Of a stretch of 45,343 nt of DNA, positions 277-45,310 are shown one piece after another; position 1 is the first letter of the stretch, and the number at the start of each line of letters is the position of its first letter. Below the pieces are notes generated by a model. That model saw nothing but the letters and a program-made list of their open reading frames with translations, was not told the DNA's origin and made no database searches. The position numbers and the translations under genes are program-made. Origin of the DNA: Gemmatimonadaceae bacterium (lineage in GTDB: Bacteria; Gemmatimonadota; Gemmatimonadetes; Gemmatimonadales; Gemmatimonadaceae); contig DASZNJ010000030.1 in assembly GCA_035551575.1 (NCBI GenBank), positions 1-45,343 on the forward strand, read 5' to 3'.

Positions 277-1200
277 TCACCCCTCGTCCCCCGTCCGTCC
301 CTTGTCCCTGGTCCCTCGTCCGAACGCTTCATCGAGAAACCCGACCACAACGGCAGCGTACCGCGGGGATCTCGGCACCGTCCAGTGGTTCGCATCCTCG
401 ATCAGCTCCAGCCTCGCCCCCGGACTCGCGTCGGCGAGTCGCTTCGCGTGGTGCAGCCCGATCTGCTTGTCCTCCGTCCCGTGCATTACCAGCAGCGGGG
501 CGTGCACCTCGCCCATTCGAAGGAGTGGCTTCAACCGGGCGGGCTCCCAGACGATGATCGGCTTCCAGAACCGGTACACCGCCTTCATCATCGCGGCCGC
601 CGGATACCCCTTCGCGGCGAGCCACTCCTGCGTTCCCAGGATCGGATCGGACGGCGACCCGACCGTCACGATCGCGCGCGGCACCAGCCCTTCCGCCGCG
701 CCCTCGGCGGCCGCGAGGATCGCGGCGGTCCCGCCTAACGAGTGACCGGCGAGCGCGATCCCCGGAGCGCACTCCGCGCGCGCGTGTGCCCAGCGCCAGA
801 TCGCGAGCAGGTCCTCGACGAAGTGGCGCACCGACGCGAACGCAGCCGGATCGCTCTCACCGTGGCCGAGCGTGTCGAAGACCGCGACGTGGTAGCCGGC
901 AGCGACGAGCGGACGCGCGTAGGCGAGCATGTCCGAGGCGTGCGACTGCCAGCCATGCGCGAAGAGTACGGTGGGCGCGGCACCTGCCGAGGCATGGATC
1001 AACGCGCCGCGGAGCATTCCCTCGGGGCGCGGGACGTTGATGGGCGTCGTCGGGAAGCCGAGCGTCTCGGGTTTCCTGTCGCCCCGGCGTCCCTTCGCGC
1101 GGAGGAAGCTCCGGGCGAAGCCGCGCACCCACAGGTATCCTGTCACCAGAGCGAGAAGCAGTGCGCATCCGACGGCGGCACCGATCGTCGTTCGATTCAT
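277..1200 (-). CDS. Alpha/beta-fold serine hydrolase with an N-terminal membrane anchor
   Basis: 307-aa ORF. It has an N-terminal hydrophobic helix (AAVGCALLLALVTGYLWV), an HGW oxyanion region, a GHSLGG nucleophile elbow and late HGTED and NHW motifs consistent with an Asp/His triad. The last ~15 residues (GRGTRDKGRTGDEG) are encoded by decayed heptamer repeats. Confidence 0.8.
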   Translation of the reverse strand: MNRTTIGAAVGCALLLALVTGYLWVRGFARSFLRAKGRRGDRKPETLGFPTTPINVPRPEGMLRGALIHASAGAAPTVLFAHGWQSHASDMLAYARPLVAAGYHVAVFDTLGHGESDPAAFASVRHFVEDLLAIWRWAHARAECAPGIALAGHSLGGTAAILAAAEGAAEGLVPRAIVTVGSPSDPILGTQEWLAAKGYPAAAMMKAVYRFWKPIIVWEPARLKPLLRMGEVHAPLLVMHGTEDKQIGLHHAKRLADASPGARLELIEDANHWTVPRSPRYAAVVVGFLDEAFGRGTRDKGRTGDEG

Positions 1201-1270
1201 CAGTGAGCTTCGTTTGTGGCGCGCACTTGAATTCGCCCCAGTGCGCGGTCATCTTTTGCCTGCTTCGCGC

Positions 1271-1288
1271 TTGTGAAAATCTTCACAA
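1271..1288 (+). promoter_or_regulatory. Candidate CRP/FNR-family operator: perfect palindrome TTGTGAAAATCTTCACAA (TGTGA-N6-TCACA)
   Basis: Perfect 7-bp inverted arms in the AT-richer intergenic region, centred about 61 nt upstream of the actA ATG (1341). It is the only TGTGA-N6-TCACA in the window. Confidence 0.4.
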
Positions 1289-1874: not shown

Positions 1875-1978
1875 TCGACCCGAGCGGGCCCGCTGCCTAA
1901 CGCCAGCGAGCCCGCTCGCCGCACCGCCCGGCAGCATCGTTCCGCAGTCTGTCCGACTCTCTCTCGTCCCTCATCGCA

Positions 1979-4900
1979 GTGTCAGAGAACGCACCGCCAC
2001 AAGGAACCACTCCTCGCCGCGAGTTCCTCAAGGTTCTCGGCGTCGGGACCGCGACCGTCGCTGCCGTCGGCTGCGGCACGGATCACGTCGAGCGTCTGAT
2101 CCCCTACGTCCATCACCCGGATCAGACCGTCCCCGGCGTCTCGACCTACTACGCGACCACCTGCCGTGAATGCTCGGCCGCCTGCGGGGTGATCGCCGAG
2201 ACCCGCGACGGGCGCGCGATCAAGCTCGAGGGAAATCCCGAGCATCCGCTCTCGCGCGGCGCGATCTGCGCGCGCGGGCAGGCTGCGCTCCAGGGGCTCT
2301 ACAACCCCGATCGCTTCCGCGGTCCGATGATCCGGAAGAACGGGAAGCTCGAGCCGGTGAAGTGGCAGGAGGCGCTGCAGCTCTTCTCGCAGAAGCTCGG
2401 CGAGACGCAGAGCCGCGGCCAGGGTGGCAACGCGGTGTTCATCAACCAGCACGAGAGCGGGTCATTCCCCGGCTTCCTCGACGGCTGGCTCGCGGCGAAC
2501 AACCTCCCCGCGCATGTCAGCTACGATGCCGAGGCGGAGAGCGCGACGATGGAAGCGAACCGCCAGAGCTACGGCGTGTCGTGGCCGGCGCTGCGCTTCA
2601 GCGCGGCGAGGTTGATCGTCTCCTTCGGCGCGGACTTCCTCGACGGGTGGGGCGCGTCGGTCCCGCAGCAGCTCGACTTCGCTGACGCGCGCGCGAAGCT
2701 CGACGACGCGCCGCGCTTCATCTACGTCGGCGCCCGCCGCTCGCTCACCGGGCTCAATGCCGACGAGTGGGTGCCATGCAAGCCGGGCACCGAGCAGATC
2801 GTCGCCCAGGCGTTGAGCGGCGCGATCGCCCCGGCCACCGCGGCCCAGCAGTGCGACGTTCCCGCCGAGCAGCTGTCGCGGCTGGCGCGCGAGGTCGCGG
2901 GGGCGAGGCCGTCGCTCTTCCTCGCCGGCGGCAACGGCGCGACCGCGCTCGAGCTCGCACAGACGGTGAACCGGATGAACCAGAGCGCCGGCAACGTCGG
3001 CGTCACCGTCCTGCCTGGCGAGGCCCTGACCGGCTTCGAGGGAATGGGCGGCTTCGGGGAGCTGTACGACGTCGTCCAGCGAATGGAGCGCGGGCAGGTC
3101 CCGCTGCTGATGACCCGCGGCGCGAACCCGGCGTTCACGGTGCCCGGCTTCGCAGCGGCGATGGCCAGGGTGCCCTTCAAGGTCAGCTTCTCCTCGTACC
3201 CGGACGAGACGGCGGCGATGGCCGACCTCGTCCTGCCGGACAACCACGCGCTCGAGAGCTGGGGCGATGCCCAGCCGATGCGCGGCACGATCTCGCTGCA
3301 GCAGCCGGCGATGGAGCCGGTGTTCGACACCCGCGCCACCGCCGACGTCCTGATCCAGGCGGCGAAGGCGAACCAGGCGACGGCGAGCCGCTACACGCAG
3401 GCCGACTATCGCGCCTGGCTCTTCGGGCGCATTCCCGGCGGGCAGTCGGCGATCACCAGCGCGCTCCCGCGCGGAGTGATGGCGGGCGCGCTACCTAACG
3501 CGCCGGCGGCGCGGCGGGCCCCGGTCCGCCTCAACGCCCCGGCCGCCAGTGGCGACTACTTCTTCGTCACCTACTTCTCGCCGACGCTCGGCGACGGCCG
3601 CGGCGCGAACAAGCCCTGGCTGCAGGAGCTTCCCGATCCGGTCTCGAAGATCTGCTGGCAGACGTGGGTCGAGGTTCATCCGCTCACGGCGAACAAGCTC
3701 GGCGTCACCAATGGAGACGTGGTCGAGGTGAAGACGGCGGGCGGCTCGGTGAAGGCGCCCGTCTACCTGTTCCTCGGCATTCGCCCCGACACGATCGCGA
3801 TCCCGCTCGGGCAGGGACACACCGAGTACGGGCGCTACGCGAAGGGGACCGGGGTCAATGCGGCGGCGATCCTGCCGTTAGGCACCGACGGCGCCGGCGG
3901 CCGCGTCGGCGTGACGAAGGCCAGCCTGGCAAAGGCTGGCGAGGAGGTCGCGCTCGTCTCGACCGAAGGTTCGGCGCGCCAGCACGGCCGCGGCATCGCG
4001 CAGGCGATCGTCGCCGGGCGCGGCGGGCTGCTCGCCAGCGCGCAGGGCGCCGAGCATGCCGGCGGGGTCGCGCCGACGGGGGATGCCGCCGAGAGCCCCG
4101 AAGCGCAGGCGGGGCACGAGGGCGCGCAGGGCGGCGAGGAGCACATGCCCGGCGACGCGAGCCACGCCTTCCTCCCCGGCCTCCGGTCCCCGGTCGCCAA
4201 CGACGCGCAGGGTGACCTCGGCGACCCGACGTCGAAGGACCGCGGGATGTACGACCCGAAGCACTGGAGCGGGATGGCGAGGCGCCGCTGGGCGATGACG
4301 GTCGACCTCGCCCGCTGCACCGGCTGCTCGGCGTGCGTCACCGCCTGCTATTCGGAGAACAACATCCCGACCGTCGGCGCCCCGCACCAGGGCCGCGCGT
4401 TGGGCCCCGGCTTCCCCGATTCGCACTGGGACACGCGTCCGGGGGCGAACATCGTGAAGGGGCGCGAGATGAGCTGGCTCCGCATCGAGCGCTACTTCGA
4501 AGGCGGGGAGGGGAACGGGACGACCTTCGACGGCGACTTCGAGACGCGCTTCACCCCGATGCTCTGCCAGCACTGCGGCAACGCGCCCTGCGAGCCGGTC
4601 TGCCCCGTCTACGCGACCTACCACGCGCCGGATGGGCTCAACGTCCAGGTCTACAACCGCTGCGTCGGCACGCGCTACTGCTCGAACGCCTGCCCGTACA
4701 AGGTCCGCTACTTCAACTGGTTCGGCTACGGCGAGCCGGCGCGCCGGCAGTACGCCTTCCCCGAGCCGCTCAACTGGCAGCTCAACCCGGACGTCACCGT
4801 CCGCGGGAAGGGCGTCATGGAGAAGTGCACCTTCTGCGTGCAGCGCATCCGTGAAGCGGAGAACCGCGCGAAGCTCGAGGGGCGCGAGGTGCGGCCCGAC

Positions 4901-5128: not shown

Positions 5129-6552
5129 TGGCCGCCCGCGACTACGACACGACGACGGTCCCGCTGCGCACCAACATCGCGTCGGCGGACATCCAGCTTC
5201 CCGCGGTCCACGACTACGAGCAGGTCGACCGCGAGATCGCCGGGACGCTGACGCCCTCCTTCGGGTGGTTCGGCGCGTTAGGCGTCGCCGTCCTCCTCTT
5301 CCTCTGGGGGGCCGGCGTCTGGATCTACCAGATCTACTGGGGGCTCGGCAACGCCGGCTACACCCCGCCGGTGATGTGGGGCGTCTACATCATCACCTTT
5401 GTCTTCTGGGTCGGTATCGGCCACGCCGGCACCCTCATCTCGGCGATTCTCTACCTGTTCCGCGCCGGCTTCCGCACGACGATCTACCGCTGCGCCGAGG
5501 CGATGACGGTGTTCGCGGTCATGACGGCGGGGCTCTTCCCCATCATCCACATCGGGCGGCCGTGGAAGTTCTTCTGGCTCATCCCGTACCCGAACTGGCG
5601 GCTGATCTGGCCGCAGTTCAAGAGCCCGCTGGTGTGGGACGTGTTCGCGATCCTCACCTACCTCACGATCTCGAGCACCTTCCTCTACGTCGGCCTCATC
5701 CCCGACATCGCGACGCTGCGCGACCGTGAGAAGAACCCGGTTCGCAAGCAGATCCTCGCCGTGCTCTCGTTCGGCTGGCGGAACTCCGATCGGGAGTGGC
5801 GCAACTTCACCCGCGCCTACCTCTTCCTCGCCGCCTTCAGCACGCCGCTCGTGCTGTCGGTGCACTCGGTCGTCTCCTTCGACTTCGCGATGGCGGTCAC
5901 GCCGGGGTGGCACGCGACGATCTTCCCGCCCTACTTCGTCGCCGGCGCGATCTTCTCCGGCATCGGGATGGTCTTCACGATCATCATCCCGATCCGGAAG
6001 TTCTTCAACCTGAAGCACTACGTCACGCTGAACCACATCGACGCCGCGGCAAAGCTCTGCCTGTTCACGTCGTGCGTCGTCGGCTGCGCCTACATGCTCG
6101 AGTTCTGGGTGGCGTGGTACAGCGGCAACGCGGTCGAGCAGGACTACTTCTGGAACCGTGTCTTCGGGCAGTGGTGGTGGGCCGCGTGGATCATGCTGAT
6201 CTGCAACATGATCCTCCCGCTCTCGCTCTTCTCGCAGAAGCTGCGGCGCAACACGATCTGGCTCTTCATCCTGTCGCTCTTCATCAACCTCGGGATGTGG
6301 TTCGAGCGCTTCGTGATCGTCGTCCCGTCGCTGAGCCACGAGTTCGAGCCGTGGCAGTGGACGCACTACACGCCGAGCTGGGTCGACATCTCGCTGCTCG
6401 TCGGGTCGTTCGGGTGGTTCTTCATGTGGTTCCTGCTCTTCATCAAGCAGCTCCCGGTCGTCGCCATCTCCGAGGTCAAGGAGATCGTCCCGCCGAAGAT
6501 GCTGCACGCGCACAGGCCGCACGGCGCGGCCGCTCACGGGGGGGCGCACTGA
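5128..6552 (+). CDS. actC: Alternative complex III subunit ActC, NrfD/PsrC-like polytopic quinol-interacting membrane protein
   Basis: The ATG at 5128 overlaps the actB stop (TGATG). Highly hydrophobic multi-TM protein rich in W and F. The ORF-track extension back to 4972 lies inside actB and is not credible. Confidence 0.85.
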   Translation: MAARDYDTTTVPLRTNIASADIQLPAVHDYEQVDREIAGTLTPSFGWFGALGVAVLLFLWGAGVWIYQIYWGLGNAGYTPPVMWGVYIITFVFWVGIGHAGTLISAILYLFRAGFRTTIYRCAEAMTVFAVMTAGLFPIIHIGRPWKFFWLIPYPNWRLIWPQFKSPLVWDVFAILTYLTISSTFLYVGLIPDIATLRDREKNPVRKQILAVLSFGWRNSDREWRNFTRAYLFLAAFSTPLVLSVHSVVSFDFAMAVTPGWHATIFPPYFVAGAIFSGIGMVFTIIIPIRKFFNLKHYVTLNHIDAAAKLCLFTSCVVGCAYMLEFWVAWYSGNAVEQDYFWNRVFGQWWWAAWIMLICNMILPLSLFSQKLRRNTIWLFILSLFINLGMWFERFVIVVPSLSHEFEPWQWTHYTPSWVDISLLVGSFGWFFMWFLLFIKQLPVVAISEVKEIVPPKMLHAHRPHGAAAHGGAH

Positions 6553-7077: not shown

Positions 7078-7905
7078 ATGAAGACCACACGCCGCCGGCT
7101 CGCCCGCGCGCTGGTGTTCGCGTTAGGCGCGTCGGCGGTGTCGGCCTGCTCCTGGTTCACCGACTTCAAGGACCAGCCGGACATCGACCCGTGGCAGTCG
7201 CCGGCGGACACGATCGGCGCCCGCGGCAATCCGCAGGGGTCGGTCCCGCTGAGCGGGATCGTCGCCCCCGCCTACGTCGCCTCGTACGCCAACGGCGGCA
7301 AGGTGCTCGACGACACCCTCGCCGCGCTCCGCAACCCGGTCGCCGCCGACGCCCGCTCGCTCGACAACGGCCGGAAGTACTACCAGATCAACTGCGCCGT
7401 CTGCCACGGGGTGGCGGGCGGCGCGGCGCCGGCCGCCCCCGGCGGCGGGGCGTTAGGCGATGGCCCGGTCGCCGGCCCGACGTACGGCCTCTACCCGCCG
7501 AGCCTCCGCACCGACCGGGTGCGCGGCTTCAGCGACGGCTACCTCTGGGGGATCATCCGCAACGGCCGCGGGCTGATGCCCTCGTACGACCGCATCGAGG
7601 AGATGGACCGCTGGGACGTCGTCAACTACGTCCGCGCCCTGCAGGCGCCCAACGTCACCGTCCCGACGACACCTGCCGGCACCCCCGGCCAGACCGGGCG
7701 CACGGTACCCGGCTACACCCGGACCGCCCCGACCGTCCCATCACCCTACGTCCATCCTGATGGCCGCGTCAGCGGCGAGGCCTACGGCCGCGCCGACACG
7801 ACGGGACCCGATACCACCACCCGGGGTGAAGTCGCCCGGCCAGCCGGGCCGGCGCCCGCGCCAGCCGGCGACGGCCAGAACCCCACGCCGGAGACGCACC
7901 AGTGA
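7078..7905 (+). CDS. actE: Alternative complex III subunit ActE, monohaem cytochrome c lipoprotein with a long Pro/Thr-rich C-terminal tail
   Basis: Signal peptide with a lipobox-like VSAC, and a single CAVCH haem motif. The start is ambiguous (7057 or 7078). The C-terminal ~90 aa are low complexity. Confidence 0.8.
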   Translation: MKTTRRRLARALVFALGASAVSACSWFTDFKDQPDIDPWQSPADTIGARGNPQGSVPLSGIVAPAYVASYANGGKVLDDTLAALRNPVAADARSLDNGRKYYQINCAVCHGVAGGAAPAAPGGGALGDGPVAGPTYGLYPPSLRTDRVRGFSDGYLWGIIRNGRGLMPSYDRIEEMDRWDVVNYVRALQAPNVTVPTTPAGTPGQTGRTVPGYTRTAPTVPSPYVHPDGRVSGEAYGRADTTGPDTTTRGEVARPAGPAPAPAGDGQNPTPETHQ

Positions 7906-9321: not shown

Positions 9322-9331
9322 GCCGCCCCGC

Positions 9332-31002: not shown

Positions 31003-31119
31003 CTACGAACCCGCACCCTTGCGGGGGGTATCAGGAGGGCTTCAAACGACAGGGCGCCGGCAAGGCGGCTGGTGCCTCTGCGAATCAGTCAGAACGGACG
31101 GGAGCAGCAAGAAACGGAC

Positions 31120-32039: not shown

Positions 32040-32593
32040 CGGGAATCGGTACACCCCGGTTCCGAGCGAGTGCCGAGATGGAGTCACGGCTGTGCGACGG
32101 GTGGACGATGATCGTCCGCCCCCCCCCGGGCGAGCGCGCCGATTCGGGGCGGGAAGCGCCTGTTCCACTGGAATTCGGCGCCGCGGTCATGAGAGATCTG
32201 GCACTCCTTGCGAGTGACCGGCTCTCGTGCACCCGCGCCAACAGCAGTTGAACCACAGAGCATCGCCGCGCCATTCAACCGGTCGCGGTCCCGCGCAAGC
32301 GCGTACGACGTTAGGGGCACTCCGGGCGAGATCATTCCCCCAGGCGCGCCCCCCCCGGGCCCTCTGGCCCTGCCGTCCCGAGCCTGTCCCCCGGCGGTAG
32401 TTCCCTCTGGTTCAATAGCGTTTGAAGGAAAGGCCATTGAGGATCGACATTTCGCCCTCTCCGGTGGTGCCAGATCCTTTATACTCGCCTTCGGCGCAAT
32501 GCGGCGTTATTTCCGGACCTGCCGAGCCGGCCTGGCCAGGCCGCGCAACCCTTTTCGGGGATCCCCTGTCCCAAGCGTCGACGAGTTGCGCCG

Positions 32594-34011: not shown

Positions 34012-34024
34012 GAGGGAGAAGAGC

Positions 34025-35506: not shown

Positions 35507-36777
35507 GGCGATTCATTCATGTCGCGGCCGCGCTCGCGTTAGGTGCGGCGACGGCCGGCGCCCAGTCGCTCGCGCAGCGCATCGCGGCAGCGGGGCAGGG
35601 CGAGATCCGAATGACGTACGCGACGAGGCCTGACGTTTGTGGAGACGGCGGCAGCACGATCGGCCTCGCCGACGCCTTCATGATGTCGTCGTCGATGGAG
35701 TCGTACGGCCGGTGGACGAGCACTCACTGCCGCCCGGGCACGGCGCGCGTGGCGATCGAGGTCGGACCGGCCGGCGTCGAGTCGATCCAGCCGTACGTCG
35801 GAGGGAGCTGGCAGGCGACGGACGGGCACGTGGTCGACCTTGGCGTCGTCTCCGCCCCCGAAGCGGCCAGCTATCTCCTCGGCATCGCCGAGAGGCTGGA
35901 TGGCCGCGCCGCCCCGAACGCGTTGCTCGCGGCGGCGATCGCCGACAGCGCCGACATCAGCGCGCGACTGCTGGCGATCGGTCAGCGGACCTCGAACGCG
36001 TCGGAGACCCGCCGTCGCGCGGTGCACTGGCTCGGCGTCCTCGGCGACGCATCGATGGTGAAGCCGCTGACGGAGCTGGCGAGGACGAGCGGCGATGAGA
36101 AAAAGAGCGTGGGCGAGGCGGCGCTGTTCGCGCTCTCCCGGCTGCCTGACGGCGCGGGGCTGCCGTCGCTGATCGAGCTCGCACGCAGCGCGCCATCGAC
36201 GCGGCTGCGCGCGCGGGCGGTGTTCTGGCTCGGCCAGTCGGATGACCGGCGCGCGCGGGAGGAGGTGCGCGAGATCGCCGCGGACGCGAACGCGCCGAGC
36301 GACGTGCGCGAGCGGGCGGTGTTCGCGCTTGGCCACTCCGACGCTGCGACCACCGACGACTTCCGCTTCCTCCGCGACCTGTTCGGCCGTGCCGACAGCC
36401 GGAAGATGCGGGACCAGATCCTGATGGCGATGTCGCAGAGCGATGACAAGGAAGCCCGACAGTGGCTGCTGTCGGTTGCGCGCGACGAGAACGCCCCAGT
36501 CGAGTCGCGAAAGAAGGCGGTCTTCTGGGCGGGACAGGGCGGCGTCCCGACCGCTGACATCGCCAGCGTCTACGACGCGGTGTCGAATCGCGCCGTGAAG
36601 GAGCACACGATCTTCGTGCTCTCGCAGCGCGACGACAGGGCAGCGACGGAGAAGCTGATGGCGATCGTCAATGGCAACGGCGACCGGGAGCTCCGGAAGA
36701 AGGCGCTCTTCTGGCTCGGCCAGAAGGACGATCCGGCGGTGACGAAGGCGATCTCGGACCTGGTGATGAAGCCATGA
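35503..36777 (+). CDS. Secreted HEAT-repeat protein, paralogue 2
   Basis: The ATG overlaps the upstream stop (ATGA). Signal peptide, an N-terminal Cys-pair domain of about 130 aa, then 8 repeats collinear with the C-terminal half of 34025-35506 (LRARAVFWLGQS, SRKKAVFWAGQGG, VKEHTIFVLSQRDD, LRKKALFWLGQKDDP). Confidence 0.75.
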   Translation: MRRFIHVAAALALGAATAGAQSLAQRIAAAGQGEIRMTYATRPDVCGDGGSTIGLADAFMMSSSMESYGRWTSTHCRPGTARVAIEVGPAGVESIQPYVGGSWQATDGHVVDLGVVSAPEAASYLLGIAERLDGRAAPNALLAAAIADSADISARLLAIGQRTSNASETRRRAVHWLGVLGDASMVKPLTELARTSGDEKKSVGEAALFALSRLPDGAGLPSLIELARSAPSTRLRARAVFWLGQSDDRRAREEVREIAADANAPSDVRERAVFALGHSDAATTDDFRFLRDLFGRADSRKMRDQILMAMSQSDDKEARQWLLSVARDENAPVESRKKAVFWAGQGGVPTADIASVYDAVSNRAVKEHTIFVLSQRDDRAATEKLMAIVNGNGDRELRKKALFWLGQKDDPAVTKAISDLVMKP

Positions 36778-37628
36778 CAGGCCTCGAGCGCTCGGGCCCG
36801 CGCCCGACGGCGAGCTGGTGGAAGCGCAGCGCCGGCGCGGTGGCGCTGGCGGCCCTCACCGCGTCGCCGCTGGCGGCGCAGCAGTCACTCGCCGCGCGCG
36901 TCGCCGCGGTGAAGAACGGCAGCGCTCAGTTCGAGTTTCCCTCGCGCGAGGATGCCTGCGGCGACGGCCGGACGTACATCCGCATCGGCGACTCGATGAA
37001 CGGATACTTCGACTCCGACACCGACCGGTCGAACTGCCAACCGGGACCGGTGCGCATCGTGCTCGACGTGCGCGATGGTCGCGTCGCCTCGCTGCGCGAT
37101 TACCTCGGGCCCGTTCCCGCAGCATCGAGCGGCGTGACAGAGCTCGGCGAAGTATCGGCCGCGGAGGGATCGAGCTTCCTGTTGGGACTCGTTGAGTCGC
37201 AGGGCGGCGGGCGCATCGCCAGCCATACGGTGTTTCCGGCGATGCTCGGCCGCGACGTCGTTGCGTGGCCGACCCTGCTGCGAATCGCGAGGGCCGATGC
37301 CGGCGGAGGACGTCGCCGCCGGCACGACGTCGTCTTCTGGCTGGCGCAATACGCGGCCGCGAAGCTTGCCGGCAGCGATGACCCATTCGCCGCGCGCGGT
37401 GGGCGCGACGAGAGCGGAGACGAGGACGTGAAGGAGCACGCCGTCTTCGCGCTCTCGCAGCTGCGCAACGGAGAGGGAGTCGAGCCCCTCATCCAGGTGG
37501 CCCGCACGAACCGGGACCCGCGCGTCCGCGCCAGGGCGATGTTCTGGCTCGGCGAGTCCGGTGACCCGCGGGCACTCGCCCTCTTCGAGCAGGTCCTCAC
37601 CGGCCACGCGCCGGCACCGCGCGGCTGA
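36774..37628 (+). CDS. Secreted HEAT-repeat protein, paralogue 3 (shorter)
   Basis: ATGA overlap with the upstream gene. The N-terminal domain is homologous to that of paralogue 2 (FEFPSREDACGDGRTYIRIG...NCQPGPVRIVLDV). The C-terminal repeats are VVFWLAQY, VKEHAVFALSQL and VRARAMFWLGESGDP. Confidence 0.7.
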   Translation: MTGLERSGPRPTASWWKRSAGAVALAALTASPLAAQQSLAARVAAVKNGSAQFEFPSREDACGDGRTYIRIGDSMNGYFDSDTDRSNCQPGPVRIVLDVRDGRVASLRDYLGPVPAASSGVTELGEVSAAEGSSFLLGLVESQGGGRIASHTVFPAMLGRDVVAWPTLLRIARADAGGGRRRRHDVVFWLAQYAAAKLAGSDDPFAARGGRDESGDEDVKEHAVFALSQLRNGEGVEPLIQVARTNRDPRVRARAMFWLGESGDPRALALFEQVLTGHAPAPRG

Positions 37629-37629
37629 C

Positions 37630-38277
37630 CTACTGCGCGACCGTCCAGCGGGTGCTCAGGTCGAAGGTTCCCCACTTGATCCTGAGCACTCCGCGGAGGT
37701 CGGCGTAGCCCTCCGCCGGGCGCGCCGAGTCCGGCACGAGGTACATCGTGAGCGACTCTTCCGGTTCGGCCATCGTTCGCACCGTCAGGGGAGTGCGTCC
37801 GAGATCCTTCGATGCGTCGTAATCGGTGCCCCACATCGCCGTGCCGCGGTTGACGATGAGCTGCCAGCCGCTCGAGCGGTAGAGCATGAACAGCGTGTAG
37901 TCGCCGCGCGGGATCTTCAGGTCGCCGAGGGTGATGTCGACGTCGGTATGAAGCGCGGTCGCCGTGTTTGCGCCGAAGCGCCAGACGGTGTCGAGCGGGA
38001 TGAGCCTCCCGGCGACCTGCCGGCCGCGAGCATGCGGCTGTCCATAGCTGATCGCGATCCGCGACGGCCCGGTCAGGCTCGCGTCTTCTTCGTACCAGCG
38101 CGAGCCGATGCGTCGGGCGTTGAGGTGCACCTCGACGCTGGCGAAGCTGCTGGCGGCGAAGCGCAGTGGGGTCTCGGGCGGTCGCTGTGCCGGAGCGGGG
38201 GCCGGCTGCTGAGCCGATGCATCGCGGTGGAAGCCGACGAGCAGCGAGGCGGCGAGCACGGCGACGGGGATTCGCAT
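37630..38277 (-). CDS. DUF2911-like secreted protein
   Basis: Signal peptide MRIPVAVLAASLLVGFHRDASAQ. SYGQPHARGRQV...VWRFGANTATALHTDVDITLGDLKIPRGDYTLF resembles DUF2911. Start chosen at the internal Met (38277). Confidence 0.55.
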   Translation of the reverse strand: MRIPVAVLAASLLVGFHRDASAQQPAPAPAQRPPETPLRFAASSFASVEVHLNARRIGSRWYEEDASLTGPSRIAISYGQPHARGRQVAGRLIPLDTVWRFGANTATALHTDVDITLGDLKIPRGDYTLFMLYRSSGWQLIVNRGTAMWGTDYDASKDLGRTPLTVRTMAEPEESLTMYLVPDSARPAEGYADLRGVLRIKWGTFDLSTRWTVAQ

Positions 38278-38391
38278 GGTCGGGAGGTGGATCGGGTCGC
38301 GGGGGCTGGGAGCGGGAAGCTCGATGTTGCGACGAGCGGTGCACGTCCGCAATATCTGCTTTCAACTTCCTGACCCGACCTGCGGCCCCGC

Positions 38392-40842
38392 ATGCCAAAT
38401 CGCGCACGAATCTTCGCCTCTGTCCTGCTCGCGCTCGGCGCGGGCTGCCGTCCGTCCTCTTCGGGCACGGCCGCCGGCTCCCCGGCCGAGCGCGAGCGGC
38501 TCCCGACGGGACGCTACCTCGACCCGGTCGCGAAATCGACCCGGCTCGCTGCCTCGTTCCCGTTAGGCATCGCGCTCTCGGCGAACGGCACCCGGGCGGC
38601 GATCCTCCTCAGCGGGTTCGGGAGGCAGGGGGTCGAGCTCGTGGATCGCGCGAGCGGGGCAACGCAGTTCGTCGAGCAGCGCGCCGCGTTCATCGGGGTC
38701 GCGATCTCCGCCGACGGGCGCACGGTGTACGCGTCGGGGGGCAACGACGACGCGGTCTATGTCTACGACTGGAGCGGCAGCACCGCGGTGCCGCGCGACA
38801 CGATCCTCCTCGCCCCGCGGCGAACGAAGGGCGACGGCGTGCGCTACCCCGCGGGCATCGCGCTCTCCCCGGACGGGCGCTGGCTGTACGCCGCCGAGAA
38901 TCTCGGCGACTCCCTCGCCGTCGTCGACCTGGCGGCTCGCCGCGTCACGGCCCGCTACGCGGCCGGGCGCTATCCGTATGGCGTGTCGGTTTCCCGGGCC
39001 GGCGACGTCTATGTCTCGGCCTGGGGGGCGAGCACCGTCACCGCCTTCGCACCGCAGGCCGACGGCACGCTCCGAGTCCGGGCGCTCTTCGAGGCCGGAC
39101 GCCACCCCTCGGCGATGCTGCTCGGCGCCGATGACGCGCGGCTCTACGTCGCGTCGGCGAGCACCGATCGGGTGCGCGTGCTCGACACCCGCACCGGTGC
39201 GACCATCGCCGATCTGCGCGATGCGCCCCCGGGCGGACCAGCCGAGGGAAGCACGCCTAACGCTCTGGCGCTCTCCCCCGACGGGGCGCGCCTGTACGTG
39301 GCCGAGGCGGACAACAACGCGGTCGCGATCTTCGACCTGGCGACGGGCGCGCTCGCCGGCCGCGTTCCCACCGACTGGTATCCGACCGCGCTGGCCGCCG
39401 TCGCCGGGGACTCGCTGCTCATCCTCTCCGCCAAGGGGGGACCGCCCGGGCCGAATCCCGGCTACGCGACGCCGCATCGCAAGGATCCGGACTCCCAGTA
39501 CACGCTCGGCCAGCTGTACGGAACGATCGCGGCCATCGCGGTGCCGCGGTCCGGGTCGCCGGCGCTCGCCGACCTGTCGCGGCGCGTCGCGGCCGCGAAC
39601 CTCTGGGCGGGACGCGCGCCGGCCGTCACCCGCGGGTATCCGCCGATCGAGCACGTCGTCTACGTCATCAAGGAGAATCGTACCTTCGACCAGGTGTTCG
39701 GCGACATCCCGCAGGCAGACGGCGACACCTCGCTCGTGTTCTTCCCGCGGACGATCACGCCCAACCATCATGCGCTCGCCGAGCGCTTCGGGATCTTCGA
39801 CCGCTTCTTCGTGAACGCCGAGGTGAGCGCGGATGGCCACAACTGGTCCACTGCCGCGTACGCCACGGATTACCTCGAGAAGACCGTCCAGTCGAACTAC
39901 TCGGGTCGCGGCCGCCACTACGATTACGAGGGGACCAACCGCAGCGACTGGGACCTGGACCGAATGGGGACGGCGATTCCGGACGACGACGTGAACGAGC
40001 CGGCCAACGGCTATCTCTGGGACCTCGCCGAGAAGGCGCACATCACCCTGCGCAACTACGGCGAATTCGTGATCGGCGTCCCGGCGGTGAAGGGTGGCCC
40101 CGCGGCCAGCTACCGGGGGGTCAAGCCATTCCTCGTCCCGAACACGAACCCCGCCTTCCCGGGGTTCGACCTCCACATCCAGGACCAGCGCCGCGCGGAC
40201 ATCTGGATCGCCGAGCTGAACGAGTTCGTGCAGCAGGGCCGCATGCCGGCGCTCGAGATCGTGCGCCTGCCTAACGATCACACCGAGGGGGCGAGCGCCG
40301 GGCGTCCGACCCCGCGCGCGCACATGGCCGACAACGACCTCGCGCTCGGGCGGATGATCGAGGCGCTGTCGAAGACCCCGTTCTGGAAGAACACCGCCGT
40401 CTTCGTCCTCGAGGACGACGCGCAGGACGGCCCCGATCATGTCGATTCGCACCGCTCGCCGCTGCTCGTGATCTCGCCGTGGGCGCGCCCCGGGGTGCAT
40501 CGCCGCTGGGCAAATACCACCGACGTGATCGCGACGATCGCCGAGCTCCTGAAGCTGGGATCGATGTCGCAGTTCGACCACTTCGGCGAGCCGCTGCGCG
40601 ACATCTGGCGCGAGAGCCCGGACCTGAGCCCGTACACCGCGCTCGTTCCCGCGGTCTCGCTCGACGAGCGCAACCCGGCGCGCGGCGTCGGTGCGCGCGA
40701 ATCGTCGCGTTTCGACTTCAGCGCCGAGGACCGGATCGACGACGACCAGTTCAACCGCGTGCTCTGGGCGGTCATCAAGGGCCCGGACGTCCCGTATCCC
40801 GGTGGTCGCGCGGCCCGTGCACCGGAGTGGACACGCCAGTAG
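38392..40842 (+). CDS. Lipoprotein fusing a YncE/YVTN-type beta-propeller to a phosphoesterase (phospholipase C/AcpA family) domain
   Basis: Lipobox-like LALGAGC. The N-terminal half has repeated G..P.G[IV]A[LI]S.DG..[LV]Y[VA] units. The C-terminal half has YVIKENRTFDQVFG and EDDAQDGPDHVDSHRSP, which are phosphoesterase-family hallmarks. Confidence 0.8.
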   Translation: MPNRARIFASVLLALGAGCRPSSSGTAAGSPAERERLPTGRYLDPVAKSTRLAASFPLGIALSANGTRAAILLSGFGRQGVELVDRASGATQFVEQRAAFIGVAISADGRTVYASGGNDDAVYVYDWSGSTAVPRDTILLAPRRTKGDGVRYPAGIALSPDGRWLYAAENLGDSLAVVDLAARRVTARYAAGRYPYGVSVSRAGDVYVSAWGASTVTAFAPQADGTLRVRALFEAGRHPSAMLLGADDARLYVASASTDRVRVLDTRTGATIADLRDAPPGGPAEGSTPNALALSPDGARLYVAEADNNAVAIFDLATGALAGRVPTDWYPTALAAVAGDSLLILSAKGGPPGPNPGYATPHRKDPDSQYTLGQLYGTIAAIAVPRSGSPALADLSRRVAAANLWAGRAPAVTRGYPPIEHVVYVIKENRTFDQVFGDIPQADGDTSLVFFPRTITPNHHALAERFGIFDRFFVNAEVSADGHNWSTAAYATDYLEKTVQSNYSGRGRHYDYEGTNRSDWDLDRMGTAIPDDDVNEPANGYLWDLAEKAHITLRNYGEFVIGVPAVKGGPAASYRGVKPFLVPNTNPAFPGFDLHIQDQRRADIWIAELNEFVQQGRMPALEIVRLPNDHTEGASAGRPTPRAHMADNDLALGRMIEALSKTPFWKNTAVFVLEDDAQDGPDHVDSHRSPLLVISPWARPGVHRRWANTTDVIATIAELLKLGSMSQFDHFGEPLRDIWRESPDLSPYTALVPAVSLDERNPARGVGARESSRFDFSAEDRIDDDQFNRVLWAVIKGPDVPYPGGRAARAPEWTRQ

Positions 40843-40871
40843 CCTGGAGCGCCACCCCCACCGCACCCTCG

Positions 40872-41810
40872 CTACGCGCGCACTGACTCACCGGCCATGA
40901 GTCGCAGCGCGTCGCGCACCGCGCCGCGCGCGGCATCGACGTCCCCGCTCTGCACCTGCGCGCCGGGGACCGCGCTCTTCATCCGCTGCTCGAGGCGCCT
41001 GCGCAGCGGTGCGCCGCGCTTGAGCAGACCGCCGGTGAGCGCGACCGGCACCGCCGCCCGCTCGTCCATGAACAGCTGCCGGGCGAGCGCGCGCACGTGC
41101 AGCACGAGCTCCTCGGCGGCCATGCTCATGATCGCGTTGGCGCGCAGGTCCCCGGCGTCCGCTTCGCTGATCACGGCCGGGGCGAGGGTAGCCAGCGCCG
41201 CCGGCGTCGCCGCCGCGGCCCAGGCGATCAGGTCGTTCACGTCGTTGACCTGCGCGGCGGTGAGGATCGCGCCGGTGAGCGCTGTCTCGGGCTCGCGGCC
41301 ATCGCTCGCCGCGGTCACGACGGAGAGTGCGCGGCGGCCGATCCATGCGCCGCTGCCTTCGTCGCCGATGTTCGGTCCCCAGCCCCCGCAGCGCGCCGTC
41401 GTCCCGGTCGGCCCGCGACCGAAGGCCACGGACCCCGTGCCGGCGATCAGCAACACGCCGACGCCGTCGCTGAAGGCGTCGTCGAGCGCGATCGTCGCGT
41501 CGGCGTGGACGACCACCTCTTCGGCCAGCTCGAGGGCGGCGAGCGCCTGCCAGAGCGCCTGACGCTCCGGCTCCCGCCCGACGCCGGCGACGCCAACGCA
41601 GAGCACGCGGGGGACGATCAGCCCGAGCTCGGCGTCGCCGAGCGCCCGCCTGACGGTCTCGGCGATGACGGTCGCCGAGCGATCGGCCTGCCCCGGGCGA
41701 ACGGCCGAGGCCGGACCGTCCGCCTCGGCGATGGTCCGCCCCGTCTCGTCGGCGACGAGGACACGGGTCTTCGATCCCCCGCCATCCACTCCGACGACGA
41801 TGGCGCTCAT
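40872..41810 (-). CDS. BadF/BadG/BcrA/BcrD-type ATPase, probable N-acetylglucosamine kinase
   Basis: VGVDGGGSKTRV phosphate-1 motif, LIAGTGSVAFG, and GGWGPNIGDEGSGAWIG. The ATG at 41810 overlaps the transporter stop (ATGA). In the track this is the C-terminal 312 aa of an artefactual 1363-aa ORF. Confidence 0.8.
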   Translation of the reverse strand: MSAIVVGVDGGGSKTRVLVADETGRTIAEADGPASAVRPGQADRSATVIAETVRRALGDAELGLIVPRVLCVGVAGVGREPERQALWQALAALELAEEVVVHADATIALDDAFSDGVGVLLIAGTGSVAFGRGPTGTTARCGGWGPNIGDEGSGAWIGRRALSVVTAASDGREPETALTGAILTAAQVNDVNDLIAWAAAATPAALATLAPAVISEADAGDLRANAIMSMAAEELVLHVRALARQLFMDERAAVPVALTGGLLKRGAPLRRRLEQRMKSAVPGAQVQSGDVDAARGAVRDALRLMAGESVRA

Positions 41811-43351
41811 GGTACGCGCTCCGGGCGAGCGGCTTCCGGACCGGCGCCGACCACGCGCGCCGCCCCGAACAGCGACGAGATCCAGCCGGTCGCGACGGTG
41901 ATGACCGTCCCGATCAGGACGTACCACGGCCACGCGATGCCGTTGAAGGGGCCCAGCACTCCCTGCAGCCCCGGAGCGGCGGCGATGAACTGCTTCGAGA
42001 AGACGATCAGTGCCATGACGAAGATCGCGACCGACATGCCGGTGATCGCGTCGCGCTGACGCGCCCGGTGGACGAACAGGCCGAGGAAGAAGCCGCCGAG
42101 CAGCGCGCCGTAGGTGAAGGACGCGATGCCTAACGCGACGACGACCGCCGGCGTCCCGCTCTCCTTGAAGAGCAGGGCGCCGCCGGTGAGCACGACCCCC
42201 CAGGCGAGCGCGAACATCTTCCCCATCCGCAGCGCCCGCGGGCTGTCCGGCCGGTCGCCGGTAATCGGCAGGTAGATGTCGTGCAGCGAGGAGGCGGCGA
42301 GCGAGTTGATCGCGCCGGAGTGCGTGCTCATCGTCGCGGCGACGATCGCCGCAACGATCAGGCCGAGCAGCCCGTGCGGCATGTACTCGACGATGAACGT
42401 CGGGAACACCGCGTCGGGCGCGGTGAACGGACGCCCGGCGAACAGCGCCCAGAGCCCGACCCCGATCATCAGGAAGAGCATGAACTGGAAGAAGACGACG
42501 ATCCCGCTGCCGATGATCGCCCGCTGCGCGTCGCGCAGGCTCTTCGACGAGAGCAGCCGCTGGACGATCAGCTGGTCGGCGCCATGCGATGCCATCGAGA
42601 GGAAGGCACCGCCGATCAGCCCGGCCCACACCGTGTGCGGCTTCGACAGTGTCGTGCTGAAGTCGATGGCGTCGAGCTTTCCCGCCGCGTGCGCCGAGTC
42701 GATGATCTGGCCCCAGCCGCCGGGCACGGCCTGGCCGATGAGCACGACGGCGCTGACCCCGCCGACGAGGTAGACCGTCGCCTGCACGATCTCGGTCCAC
42801 ACCACCGCCCTCATCCCGCCGCGGTAGGTGTAGATGATGGTCAGGACGCCGAGGATGAGGATCGCGACCGGCATGAGCAGCTCGCGCCGGATGGACGAGC
42901 CGAGGATGAGCGCGATGGGGATCGCGGTCGCGAAGACGCGGACGGCGTCGGCCATCGCCCGCGTGACCATGAACACGATCGACGTGAAGCGCCGCGTCGT
43001 CAGCCCGAAGCGCTTCTCGAGGAGGGTGTAGGCCGTCACCAGCTCCCCTTCGTAGTAGCGGGGAAGCAGGGTGTTGGCGACGACGATCCGGCCGAGGATG
43101 TAGCCGGCGGCGACCTGGAGGAAGCCGAGGTTCCCCGCCCAGGCGAGGCCGGGGATGGAGATGAAGGTGAGCGCGCTCGTCTCGCTGGCGACGACGGAGA
43201 ACATCACCGCCCCCCACGGGATCGCCCGGTCGGCGACGAAGTAGTCGCGCGCGTCGCGCTGGCGCCGCCCGACCCAGATGCCTAACGCCGTCGTCCCCGC
43301 CAGGTAGGCGAGGAGGACGACGAGGTCGATCGCCGCGAAGTTCGAGGTCAT
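41807..43351 (-). CDS. Sodium:solute symporter (SSS) family transporter
   Basis: 514 aa, about 13-14 TM helices, with SSF-like segments (YFVADRAIPWGAVMFSVVASETSALTFISIPG, GGMRAVVWTEIVQ). Confidence 0.8.
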   Translation of the reverse strand: MTSNFAAIDLVVLLAYLAGTTALGIWVGRRQRDARDYFVADRAIPWGAVMFSVVASETSALTFISIPGLAWAGNLGFLQVAAGYILGRIVVANTLLPRYYEGELVTAYTLLEKRFGLTTRRFTSIVFMVTRAMADAVRVFATAIPIALILGSSIRRELLMPVAILILGVLTIIYTYRGGMRAVVWTEIVQATVYLVGGVSAVVLIGQAVPGGWGQIIDSAHAAGKLDAIDFSTTLSKPHTVWAGLIGGAFLSMASHGADQLIVQRLLSSKSLRDAQRAIIGSGIVVFFQFMLFLMIGVGLWALFAGRPFTAPDAVFPTFIVEYMPHGLLGLIVAAIVAATMSTHSGAINSLAASSLHDIYLPITGDRPDSPRALRMGKMFALAWGVVLTGGALLFKESGTPAVVVALGIASFTYGALLGGFFLGLFVHRARQRDAITGMSVAIFVMALIVFSKQFIAAAPGLQGVLGPFNGIAWPWYVLIGTVITVATGWISSLFGAARVVGAGPEAARPERVP

Positions 43352-43366
43352 GTCGTGGGGATGGAG

Positions 43367-45310
43367 TTACTCGACGACGTACGCTTCCATCGCGAAGTAC
43401 TCGGCCAGCCCGAGCCGGTCGAGGATCGCGGCGGTGTCCTTGTTGCGTGCCTCGACGCGCTGCCAGAACTCGCGATCGTCGCTCCCCGGGAAGGGGGCCG
43501 AGTCCTTCTGCGACTGGTGCTTGAAGATCGCCTGGATCTTCAGGCGGAGCTCCTCCTGCGACATCGGGACGAGCCACGTTGCTTCCGTGATCGGCCACTC
43601 CTGCCACGCGCCGCGATAGAGCCAGGTCTCCGGCCGCGGGTTGCCGGCGGCCGAGTATTCCTCCAGCGCCATGTCGATCGCCTCCTTGCACATCCGGTGG
43701 GTGCCGTGCGGATCGGAGAGGTCGCCGGCGACGAAGATCAGCTCGGGCTTGATCTCCTCGAGCAGCTCGCGGACGATCGCGACGTCGGCGGGGCCGACCG
43801 GATCCTTGCGCACCTTCCCCGTCTGGTAGAAGGGGAGATTGAGGAAGCGCGCCGCCGACTCCCTGAGGCCGACGGTCTCGATCCCGCTCACCGCCTCCGC
43901 TTCGCGGATGATGCGCTTTATGTCGAGCACTTCCGGGATGTCGACGTCGCCGGGCTTCTTGCTCTCGAGGAAGGCGCGGACCTTGTTCGCCCAGCTGTCG
44001 GCGGCCTTCGCGTCGCCCTGCCCGTTGTGGGCCAGCCGCTGGAGGAAGTCGACGTACCGTCGCACGTCGTGGTCGAAGACGGCGATGTTGCCGCTCGTCA
44101 TGTACGCGACCGTGACGTGGTTCTCGTTCTCGACGAACTTGCGGAGGATGCCGCCCATCGAGATGACGTCGTCGTCGGGGTGCGGCGAGAAGCAGATCGT
44201 CCTCAAGCCCCGCGGGAGCTTGCTCTTGCCGCGGATCTTCGCGCCTAACGCGTTGAAGGTCTCGCCGTTGACCGCGCCGGGGGTGCCGTAGCGCGCGACC
44301 AGCGAGGACATCTTGTGCTCGGCGTAGTCGCGCTGGGTCAGGTGCAGGATCGCGCGCCCGGTCGTCTCGGACAGCCAGACCACCGCGCGGACGGTGAGGT
44401 CCGGCGTCCACTGCACCTCGTCGAGCAGCCACGGCGTCTTGATCCGCGTCAGCTCGGCGGCGGCGGCACGATCGACGTAGAACGTCGTGTTGGCGTGCCC
44501 CTGGAGGAAGGTCGCCGCCACCTCGACGTCCACCTCCCCCTCGACCGCGCGGCTGACGATGAACGCCTTGTGCTCGCCGGTGGCGAGGATCGCGATCTCG
44601 CGCGCCTCGAGGATCGTGGCGACCCCCATCGTCACCGCCTCGCGCGGGACGAAGTCTTCGCCGAAGAAGTCCGCGGCGGCGTCGCGGCGGGTCACCGCGT
44701 CGAGGGTGACGATGCGCGTCCGGCTCTCGGCGCCGGACCCCGGCTCGTTGAACCCGATGTGCCCCGTCTTGCCGATGCCGAGGATCTGGAAGTCGATCCC
44801 TCCGGCGCGGCGGATCTCGTCCTCGTAGCGCCGGCACTCCTCGTCGACCTGGTCGCGCGGGATGTCGCCGCGCGGGATGTGCACGTTCTTCGGGTCGATG
44901 TCGACGTGCTCGAACAGGTTCTCCCACATGAACCGGTGGTAGGAGTGGACGCTGTCCGGCCACATCGGGAAGTACTCGTCGAGGTTGAAGGTCACGACGT
45001 TGGCGAAGCTCAGCCCCTCGTCCCGATGCATGCGAATGAGCTCCCGGTAGACCCCGATCGGGGTCGAGCCCGTCGCGAGTCCGAGGACGGCGCGCTCACC
45101 GGCGGCCTGGCGCTCACGAATGAGCGTCGCGATGCGGTTGGCGACGAGACGGGCGATCCCCTCGTGGTCGTCGACGACGACGGTGCGGATGCGCTCGTGC
45201 GAAACGGTGGTGGCGTGCGGGATAGACGAAAGCCCGCGACTCGGAGTCGAGTCGCGGGCCTCCAGCACGGCACCGGCGTCCGTGCGGACGCCAGAGACCG
45301 GACGTGACAT
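43367..45310 (-). CDS. nagB: Long-form glucosamine-6-phosphate deaminase: NagB domain fused to a C-terminal LmbE/PIG-L-type deacetylase-like domain
   Basis: The N-terminal half has GLATGSTPIGVYRELI, NLDEYF and GIGKTGHIGFNEPGS. The C-terminal half has ICFSPHPDDDVISMGG and LSDPHGTHRMC, as in LmbE-like metal-dependent deacetylases. The exact start is uncertain near the window end. Confidence 0.85.
   Translation of the reverse strand: MSRPVSGVRTDAGAVLEARDSTPSRGLSSIPHATTVSHERIRTVVVDDHEGIARLVANRIATLIRERQAAGERAVLGLATGSTPIGVYRELIRMHRDEGLSFANVVTFNLDEYFPMWPDSVHSYHRFMWENLFEHVDIDPKNVHIPRGDIPRDQVDEECRRYEDEIRRAGGIDFQILGIGKTGHIGFNEPGSGAESRTRIVTLDAVTRRDAAADFFGEDFVPREAVTMGVATILEAREIAILATGEHKAFIVSRAVEGEVDVEVAATFLQGHANTTFYVDRAAAAELTRIKTPWLLDEVQWTPDLTVRAVVWLSETTGRAILHLTQRDYAEHKMSSLVARYGTPGAVNGETFNALGAKIRGKSKLPRGLRTICFSPHPDDDVISMGGILRKFVENENHVTVAYMTSGNIAVFDHDVRRYVDFLQRLAHNGQGDAKAADSWANKVRAFLESKKPGDVDIPEVLDIKRIIREAEAVSGIETVGLRESAARFLNLPFYQTGKVRKDPVGPADVAIVRELLEEIKPELIFVAGDLSDPHGTHRMCKEAIDMALEEYSAAGNPRPETWLYRGAWQEWPITEATWLVPMSQEELRLKIQAIFKHQSQKDSAPFPGSDDREFWQRVEARNKDTAAILDRLGLAEYFAMEAYVVE

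Follow-up and report, generated by a model that had tools for sequence, protein, structure and literature searches.

The locus described here raises the question of why a single short word should recur many times in a high-GC genome and what might read it. The word is the 8-mer CGTTAGGC, and the locus is a stretch of 45,343 bp from a Gemmatimonadaceae bacterium (positions 1 to 45,343 of contig DASZNJ010000030.1, assembly GCA_035551575.1), which was analyzed over its whole length and is referred to as the window. An exact search of both strands (reverse complement, GCCTAACG) retrieved 23 copies, 15 in plus and 8 in minus orientation. The same number had been counted in a preliminary description of this DNA, whose coordinates all hold except that the copy placed at 7449 starts at 7451. 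Dinucleotide-preserving shuffles of the window gave an expectation of 0.75 copies, with a maximum of 4 in 100 shuffles, and an 8-mer scan identified CGTTAGGC as by far the most over-represented 8-mer of the window. The preliminary description had also suggested a codon-aware expectation. For the window, we permuted synonymous codons 1,000 times across all coding sequences (CDS), leaving all proteins and the overall codon usage unchanged, and this null model yielded a mean of 0.33 copies (maximum, 3), compared to the 21 copies observed inside the CDS. Codon or dipeptide usage thus does not account for the excess.

Because the genome has a GC content of 70%, the word forces rare codons ending in A or T. 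Third codon positions are 92% GC in the word-bearing genome, and TTA accounts for 22 of the 1,317 leucine codons of the window. Nineteen of these 22 lie within the word and one more within its variant CGTTAGGT, so that nearly every coding TTA belongs to it, as had been remarked before; Leu-Gly pairs outside the word are encoded by CTC-GGC (62) and similar codons, again in agreement with the earlier observation. No tRNA-Leu(UAA), the decoder of the TTA in the word, was found within the 45,343-bp window, the sole tRNA there being a tRNA-Ala(TGC) at 9891-9964.

Comparison with relatives showed that the word is restricted to a narrow lineage. The comparison set consisted of 80 species-level Gemmatimonadaceae relatives found via ActB in a species-level genome collection, the closest of which has 88% amino acid identity in ActB, which puts the window among uncultured Gemmatimonadaceae; contigs near-identical to the window were present in several soil metagenomes and in the metagenome-assembled genome GCA_036758365.1. 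The clade statistics draw on clade DNA of which ~110 kb is unbiased, the remainder being ascertained metagenome loci. Among the 80 relatives, CGTTAGGC was dense only in the five closest (loci L001 to L005; 75 to 88% ActB identity), with 0.63 to 1.40 copies per kb, or 0.5 to 1.4 per kb with the window included, and it was effectively absent from the other 75 loci, equally GC-rich ones among them. Clade DNA contained 0.727 copies per kb, 56 times the 0.013 per kb of outgroup Gemmatimonadaceae with high GC content. The 110-kb pool contained 80 copies compared to 2.2 expected, and the observed/expected ratio was 31 to 36 under Markov or shuffle nulls. Since the base on the 3' side of the word (+1) was a purine in 73 of the 80 pooled copies, the true word is CGTTAGGCR. 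The word, CGTTAGGC(R), is thus 8 to 9 bases long and spaced at ~1 copy per 1 to 2 kb in the bearing lineage. Beyond R at +1, the 80 pooled copies showed no flank conservation, and no AT-tracts were detected in their flanks. A dispersed repeat of the repetitive extragenic palindrome (REP) or miniature inverted-repeat transposable element (MITE) type was rejected, since these copies have neither conserved flanks nor a palindromic unit longer than the core, and the presence of the word in independent ENA, NCBI, JGI, and Logan assemblies rules out an assembly artifact.

An unbiased 8-mer scan of every locus revealed that L006, the sister of the CGTTAGGC clade in a neighbor-joining tree of ActB and ActC, has a word of its own. 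This word, CGTCAGGC, is one base apart from CGTTAGGC, a C/T transition at position 4, and occurs 26 times in 23 kb (1.1 per kb; 12 plus and 14 minus) compared to 1.9 copies expected; L006 is without the T form. The T clade also holds CGTCAGGC at 0.28 per kb versus 0.047 in the outgroups, an excess of ~6-fold. Among the other single-mismatch neighbors of CGTTAGGC, none was clearly enriched in the pooled clade, CGTTGGGC being marginal (7 versus 2.8), and neither per-locus nor pooled 8-mer scans detected a comparable dispersed word in other Gemmatimonadaceae groups.

We then considered where the copies are placed. The gene map of the window was rebuilt from gene calls on near-identical public contigs, and all 38 open reading frames (ORFs) were verified. 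The 23 copies comprise 19 sense copies read xCG-TTA-GGC, 2 antisense copies read CCT-AAC, 1 intergenic copy, and 1 copy forming a stop codon. This matches the placement given previously, including the two Pro-Asn copies in 38392-40842, the intergenic copy at 1895, the TAG stop of trxC, and the copy in the nucleophile elbow of the hydrolase. The copies, those of the sister dialect, and the one-off variants of the window are the following.

733..740, minus: sense in alpha/beta-hydrolase (277-1200, minus); TCG-TTA-GGC-GGG encodes S-L-G-G of the GHSLGG nucleophile elbow
1895..1902, minus: in the ActA-ActB intergenic region, within the loop of stem-loop 1882-1917
3876..3883, plus: sense in ActB (1979-5128), CCG-TTA-GGC (P-L-G); kept in L001 to L003; L005 has CCG-TCA-GGC (Ser)
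5276..5283, plus: sense in ActC/NrfD (5128-6552), GCG-TTA-GGC; outgroups have GLGV (GGC-CTC-GGC)
7121..7128, plus: sense in ActE cytochrome c (7042-7905)
7451..7458, plus: sense in ActE (7042-7905)
9330..9337, minus: CGT-TAG, last codon and stop of Zn-ribbon thioredoxin (9332-9808, minus)
12512..12519, plus: sense in MGH1-like glycoside hydrolase (12121-14295); L002 has GCG-CTC-GGC
12890..12897, plus: sense in the same glycoside hydrolase (T-L-G); kept in L002
13439..13446, plus: sense in the same glycoside hydrolase (P-L-G); kept in L002
15526..15533, plus: sense in PAS histidine kinase (15207-16772)
22481..22488, plus: sense in ExbD (22288-22770)
24790..24797, plus: sense in amino acid permease (24336-25874)
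27177..27184, plus: sense in H+-pyrophosphatase (25907-28093)
28261..28268, plus: sense in second amino acid permease (28185-29714)
32919..32926, plus: sense in ECF sigma factor (32594-33157)
33356..33363, plus: sense in 285-aa protein (33154-34011) downstream of the ECF sigma factor
38561..38568, plus: sense in SGL/phosphoesterase protein of 816 aa (38392-40842)
39255..39262, minus: antisense in the SGL/phosphoesterase gene (38392-40842), ACG-CCT-AAC-GCT (T-P-N-A)
40269..40276, minus: antisense in the SGL/phosphoesterase gene (38392-40842), CTG-CCT-AAC-GAT (L-P-N-D); extended form CGTTAGGCAG
42128..42135, minus: sense in SSF transporter (41807-43351, minus)
43280..43287, minus: sense in SSF transporter (41807-43351, minus)
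44243..44250, minus: sense in glucosamine-6-P isomerase/PIG-L protein (43367-45268, minus)
19072..41655: 13 copies of the secondary dialect CGTCAGGC, starting at 19072 (minus), 21481 (plus), 23203 (plus), 25549 (minus), 25652 (minus), 25869 (minus), 26944 (minus), 31297 (plus), 31796 (plus), 35628 (minus), 36144 (minus), 41557 (minus), and 41648 (minus)
One-off variants: CCTTAGGC at 261; CGTTAGGT at 3493 (minus) and 35537; CGTTAGGG at 32309
One-off variant CGTTGGGC: 4398, 7647 (minus), 8329, 12164, 26784, and 28922 (minus)

The near-variants CGTTAGGT, CCTTAGGC, and CGTTAGGG had been noticed before and are present. To judge from their sequences, the one-off variants look like decayed or nascent copies of the word; relatives have full copies at the sites orthologous to 3493 (CTA-CCT-AAC-G) and to 4398 and 8329 (TTG-GGC). 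The spacing of the word tended to be more even than random in six of six loci (coefficient of variation of 0.54 to 0.88 versus 0.84 to 0.95), significantly so in L002 only (P=0.003). The longest word-free stretches of the window are 15534-22480 (7.0 kb; two-component regulators with TonB/ExbB), 28269-32918 (4.7 kb; the end of a permease and an SDF transporter), and 33364-38560 (5.2 kb; three HEAT-repeat genes).

Two noncoding surroundings of the word deserve a description of their own. The stem-loop at 1882-1917 directly follows the ActA stop codon and holds the word in its loop (GCCTAACG on the mRNA strand). An equivalent ActA-ActB hairpin with the word in the loop is found in L001 (~1110-1150), L002 (~9895-9930), and L005 (~9935-9965), with differing stem sequences, and these segments of ~65 nt have minimum free energies of -27 to -37 kcal/mol. 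At other intergenic copies no obvious stem was seen. Beside the stop-codon copy, immediately 3' of the thioredoxin gene, a tandem heptamer array CCCTGAC (~3.5 units) occupies 9290-9319; at the same place, L002 (~8310-8350) has another G/C-rich tandem array (GGTCCCCGGCCCCTG...), together with two copies of the word that overlap.

The preliminary description had stressed a sense bias, which is present in the window but is not intrinsic to the word. Sites in the window at which the word could be accommodated number 58 in sense (44 [SPTA]-L-G and 14 V-R) versus 21 in antisense (13 L-T and 8 P-N); 19 of the 44 [SPTA]-L-G sites (43%) and 2 of the 8 P-N sites are occupied. The clade pool contained 43 sense Leu-Gly copies, 17 antisense Pro-Asn copies (mostly CTG-CCT-AAC-G), 2 sense Val-Arg copies, and 2 antisense Leu-Thr copies, the remaining 16 being noncoding or unclassified. 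In ~30 further clade contigs from metagenomes, all four stop-free frames were used, with 40, 25, 17, and 15 copies; in the other two frames the word includes TAG or TAA, and it does serve as a stop codon. Sense-to-antisense ratios were thus 45:19 and 57:40 in these two sets of relatives, with 30 to 40% of coding copies in antisense, and the L006 dialect CGTCAGGC occupies every frame in both orientations and encodes different residues. The sense and TTA bias of the window therefore reflects where the word fits, Leu-Gly being common, and not an RNA or translation signal. Orientation turns with the gene strand and is mixed even inside single genes, as in ActB of L001 (3 plus, 4 minus); per locus, it was 11 plus and 9 minus in L002 and 12 plus and 14 minus in L006. 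No replication polarity was seen by gene-strand and within-gene orientation, as assessed on loci and contigs rather than on oriC/ter maps. As far as frames and strands tell, the signal is one of the DNA itself, and neither RNA nor protein carries it.

Codon-aligned orthologue columns of ActB, ActC, ActE, and ActF from 81 genomes provided information on how sites are gained, kept, and lost. (i) Some gains were synonymous, as in the change of ACG-CTC-GGC to ACG-TTA-GGC in L001 and L003. The 733 copy in the hydrolase gene is likewise a synonymous gain, because L004 and L005 carry TCG-CTG-GGC there. The preliminary description had asked about the leucine codons of relatives, and at word sites these are, for example, CTG (L004 and L005) or CTC (L002 and outgroups). 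(ii) Other gains needed an amino acid change and concerned poorly conserved positions, namely, LGEP to LPNA and K/R-P-x-E to L-P-N-E in ActB and GLGV to ALGV in ActC. The gain at 5276 took Gly to Ala plus CTC to TTA, because the outgroups encode GLGV (GGC-CTC-GGC). (iii) The one-off states TTG-GGC and CTA-CCT-AAC-G occur in a single genome where relatives hold the full word. (iv) Between the window and L001 to L003, word-TTA sites were conserved in 14 of 16 comparisons, which are not independent because these relatives share the same few sites; other A/T-ending codons were conserved in 29%, and identity at four-fold degenerate sites was 56 to 68%. In comparison with L004 and L005, 0 of 5 word sites were common despite equal density, and no window word site was common to L006. 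Word sites are thus retained among close relatives and turned over among distant ones. (v) Observed/expected ratios of the clade tripeptides were 1.34 versus 0.85 for [SPTA]LG, 1.98 versus 0.98 for PN[VADEG], and 6.4 versus 2.1 for LPNx, corresponding to a 1.6- to 3-fold inflation of word-encoded tripeptides; those of rarely used frames were not inflated. (vi) A strain-level comparison (L081 to L094; 99.6 to 100% identity) showed no polymorphism at any word site. Taken together, the codon-aware null model, the clade specificity, the frames and strands used in relatives, and the gains that change amino acids support the earlier proposal that the target of selection, or drive, is the DNA word and not the protein.

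The word is also found on phage DNA. A scan of viral contigs for word pairs yielded mostly noise and several high-GC contigs with extra dispersed copies. Genuine phage segments with the word, recognized by PHROG matches, were L215, L227, L232, L289, L302, and L332, and the matched genes include those for terminase, portal, tape-measure, and major head proteins, DNA polymerase, and primase. These contigs were ascertained through a word pair, and beyond that pair the segments contained ~0.36 copies per kb, ~27 times the outgroup baseline; their phage nature was read from these genes. On L289 (6490-7695), a DNA methyltransferase (phrog_116, E=1.6e-80) lies beside a primase and an HNH endonuclease.

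The scans also returned sequences that are distinct from the word or mimic it. Pooled clade-wise 8-mer scans elsewhere gave modest excesses only, the best being TCAAGCCG: TCAAGCCG/CGGCTTGA occurs 19 times in 49 kb versus 2.5 expected, in all four of L007, L016, L021, and L027 (GC ~0.61, one Gemmatimonadaceae subclade), and may be a weaker, unrelated word of another lineage. Modest excesses were also noted for GCGATCGC, the HIP1 palindrome of cyanobacteria, in L025 (18 versus 5.4 expected) and for the palindrome CGAGCTCG in L052 (22 versus 7 expected). An apparent word of L055, CGGGACTC, was rejected because it stems from a local cluster and is not dispersed; 10 CGGGACTC-containing repeats of ~17 to 21 nt are packed there at 1665-1840 in two opposed blocks. 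About two-thirds of the metagenome word-pair scan was noise in the form of tandem (GCGTTAG)n heptamer arrays in low-GC contigs. Such arrays, with the variants GCGTTAA and GCGTTGG, mimic the word in L102, L135, L151, L164, L186, and L196 (metagenome) and in L294 and L333 (viral), which are mostly low in GC. L144 (6.7 kb, GC 0.62) carries nine dispersed word copies in a single orientation, and its genes are nearly all on the same strand, with one short ORF opposite; the gene caller, which is based on GC content at third codon positions (GC3), left most of these copies unclassified. L144 may be a lower-GC member of the clade.

What kind of word is this? It is best filed among the lineage-specific hyperabundant genomic words, which are a known kind. 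With about even confidence, we favor the reading that CGTTAGGC(R) is a lineage-specific, genome-wide self word resembling the DNA uptake sequences (DUS) of Neisseriaceae and the uptake signal sequences (USS) of Pasteurellaceae and that it is kept by uptake bias and recombination. Among the candidate roles listed in the preliminary description, a DNA-uptake-type sequence appears to fit the sequence anatomy best, and it is from this DUS/USS-like anatomy that we infer the uptake machinery as the reader of the word. The transformation machinery would include a DNA-binding component with a preference for double-stranded DNA bearing the word, and word-bearing fragments released by relatives would be taken up and recombined more often. 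Mutations creating the word would spread by molecular drive, by selection for the uptake of self-DNA, or by both. Copies would then pile up wherever they are tolerated, which at 92% GC3 would be chiefly sense xCG-TTA-GGC (Leu-Gly) and antisense G-CCT-AAC-G (Pro-Asn), and further in stop codons, hairpin loops, and intergenic DNA. At the sequence level, the word shares with DUS and USS its density, the use of both orientations, restriction to a lineage with a dialect, a location at tolerated coding positions with peptide inflation, and copies in phages.

Several points weigh against the uptake reading. Close inverted word pairs, which form terminators, were absent from the unbiased loci, and the structured intergenic copy sits singly in the ActA-ActB hairpin loop, not as an inverted pair; among the sequence-level DUS/USS criteria examined, this was the sole one lacking, and it is of the Neisseria type only and not universal in the family. 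A crude prepilin-motif regular expression found no match in the ~430 kb scanned from the clade, a sample too limited for this negative to be informative. The literature yielded no data on uptake, transformation, or competence for any Gemmatimonadota. Furthermore, any strongly favored DNA-protein recognition word would give every feature reported here, and HIP1 has had a similar look for 30 years without a settled function. Our literature search also retrieved no description of an uptake-type or oligonucleotide word in Gemmatimonadota, and CGTTAGGC itself appeared only in primers and unrelated matches.

A rival explanation is a HIP1-like word read by an abundant chromosomal protein, such as a nucleoid or other DNA-binding protein, or by an orphan methyltransferase, serving chromosome maintenance, organization, or repair and not uptake; all that was observed fits any strongly selected protein-DNA site. 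HIP1 likewise lies in genes, is linked to methyltransferases (PMC4390886), and reaches similar excesses (15- to 300-fold; PMC5861425). However, the Gemmatimonadaceae word lacks the palindromic form of a HIP-type word, and contiguous asymmetric methyltransferase targets of 8 to 9 bp are unusual. Moreover, we know of no nucleoid protein that demands thousands of exact 8-mers at the cost of amino acid changes. We consider this explanation unlikely, and its distinction from uptake is blurred because HIP1 itself has now been proposed to enhance transformation (bioRxiv 10.64898/2026.06.24.733823). A Chi-like recombination hotspot or self marker, at which a helicase-nuclease of the RecBCD/AddAB type would recognize the word, stop degradation, and promote RecA loading, with selection on hosts and phages, is in our judgment rather improbable. 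Chi words are short, asymmetric, over-represented, and taxon specific, and the presence of the word on phage contigs would be compatible with such a role, as phages that leave the host nuclease active can hold host-like Chi densities. Nevertheless, known Chi words are co-oriented with replication, whereas the orientation of CGTTAGGC turns with the gene strand and single genes contain both orientations, which argues against roles of the Chi or KOPS type and against the polar motif considered in the preliminary description. The density of ~1 per 1 to 2 kb and the ~36- to 56-fold excess are also far above typical Chi values, which are ~1 per 5 kb and a few-fold, and the word is made of rare codons while E. 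coli Chi is made of common ones. A KOPS (FtsK-orienting polar sequence, with >80% strand skew switching at dif) was rejected on the same orientation data.

A bias of mutation or repair that affects all DNA replicating in the cells, phages included, could arise from very-short-patch-type repair or from deamination of 5-methylcytosine converting CGTCAGGC into CGTTAGGC. The C/T transition at position 4 between the dialects, the excess of the C form retained in the T clade, and the sharing of the word by phages agree with this possibility. Yet repair by Vsr leads to an excess of the C form and a deficit of the T form, the reverse of what is seen in the T clade (T, 56-fold; C, 6-fold). The effect of 36- to 56-fold is far larger than expected, the excesses in the Dcm/Vsr case being well under 2-fold. 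A short-patch-repair footprint, which had also been suggested, does not fit on these two grounds. In addition, T-word sites derive from the leucine codons CTC and CTG or from unrelated residues and not from TCA, no site of the window is common to L006, and the passage from CTC to TTA takes two specific changes against a 92% GC3 bias. We thus regard this explanation as very improbable. An RNA or translation signal, in which sense CG-UUA-GGC would act as a bldA-like regulated rare codon or pause site or would be bound by an RNA-binding protein, is hardly credible. Of the 21 coding copies of the window, 19 are sense and share a single frame, and TTA hardly occurs outside the word, but this bias matches the available-site ratio of 58:21, relatives have 30 to 40% antisense coding copies in four frames, intergenic and stop-codon copies exist, and the dialect of the sister lineage is found in all frames, with different residues encoded.

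We would give an even chance to the broader proposition that a clade of uncultured soil Gemmatimonadaceae practices sequence-specific natural transformation with its own word, CGTTAGGCR (sister dialect, CGTCAGGC), or that a genome-wide machine of an undescribed kind reads this word. To our knowledge, sequence-specific DNA uptake is firmly known in two proteobacterial families only. If the proposition is true, this would be the first uptake-sequence system outside the Proteobacteria, the still-debated cyanobacterial HIP1 aside, and the first uptake sequence in a high-GC genome, visibly rewriting codons and proteins. As a third independent case, in an abundant and almost uncultured soil phylum, it would imply that self-preferring transformation evolves repeatedly. 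The word would also be a sequence tag for gene flow, species borders, and, because phages carry it, phage-host pairs in soil metagenomes, and the T and C dialects would form a natural experiment in which co-variation could lead to the receptor. The case further shows clearly that drive at the level of DNA can prevail over a codon bias of 92% GC3, with 43% of the compatible tripeptide sites in the window converted, one of them in a catalytic GxSxG motif.

Comparison with known systems places the word closest in form to the DUS and USS. Like the Neisseriaceae DUS (core GCCGTCTGAA, read by the minor pilin ComP), it is a short asymmetric word present at ~1 per kb in both orientations. It is lineage specific with a sister dialect, as are DUS, whose dialects in sister lineages differ by one or two bases (PMC3630211), and it lies in genes at tolerated positions with inflated tripeptides; uptake sequences roughly double the frequencies of the tripeptides they encode and sit at poorly conserved residues (PMC2817400). 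Both DUS and USS show frame and orientation preferences inside ORFs (PMC2346458), and ~65% of USS copies lie within ORFs with such preferences (PMC2817400, PMC2346458). In contrast to DUS, the word has another sequence, belongs to Gemmatimonadota with a 70% GC genome, and was not seen in inverted-pair terminators. Likenesses to the Pasteurellaceae USS (core AAGTGCGGT; Hin and Apl dialects) are a core of ~9 bases with a weaker flank preference (here R at +1), rather even spacing, a base composition atypical for the genome, and copies in phages, USS accumulating in temperate Pasteurellaceae phages (PMC6776037); the flanking AT-tracts of USS were not detected here. For DUS the ComP receptor and competence are known and for USS function is experimentally established, whereas the Gemmatimonadaceae word is known from sequence alone. 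HIP1 (GCGATCGC) is similarly a hyperabundant in-gene octamer, its excess ranging from tens of fold to hundreds, but it is a palindrome, phylum-wide, and the target of known methyltransferases (PMC4390886), while the asymmetric Gemmatimonadaceae word does not extend beyond a narrow clade and has a dialect. Finally, Chi (e.g., GCTGGTGG in E. coli) is also an asymmetric, taxon-specific, over-represented word, of 5 to 8 bases, that is read by a DNA-processing machine; unlike the Gemmatimonadaceae word, which is without polarity, it is strand-polar with respect to replication, ~5-fold rarer, and composed mostly of common codons.

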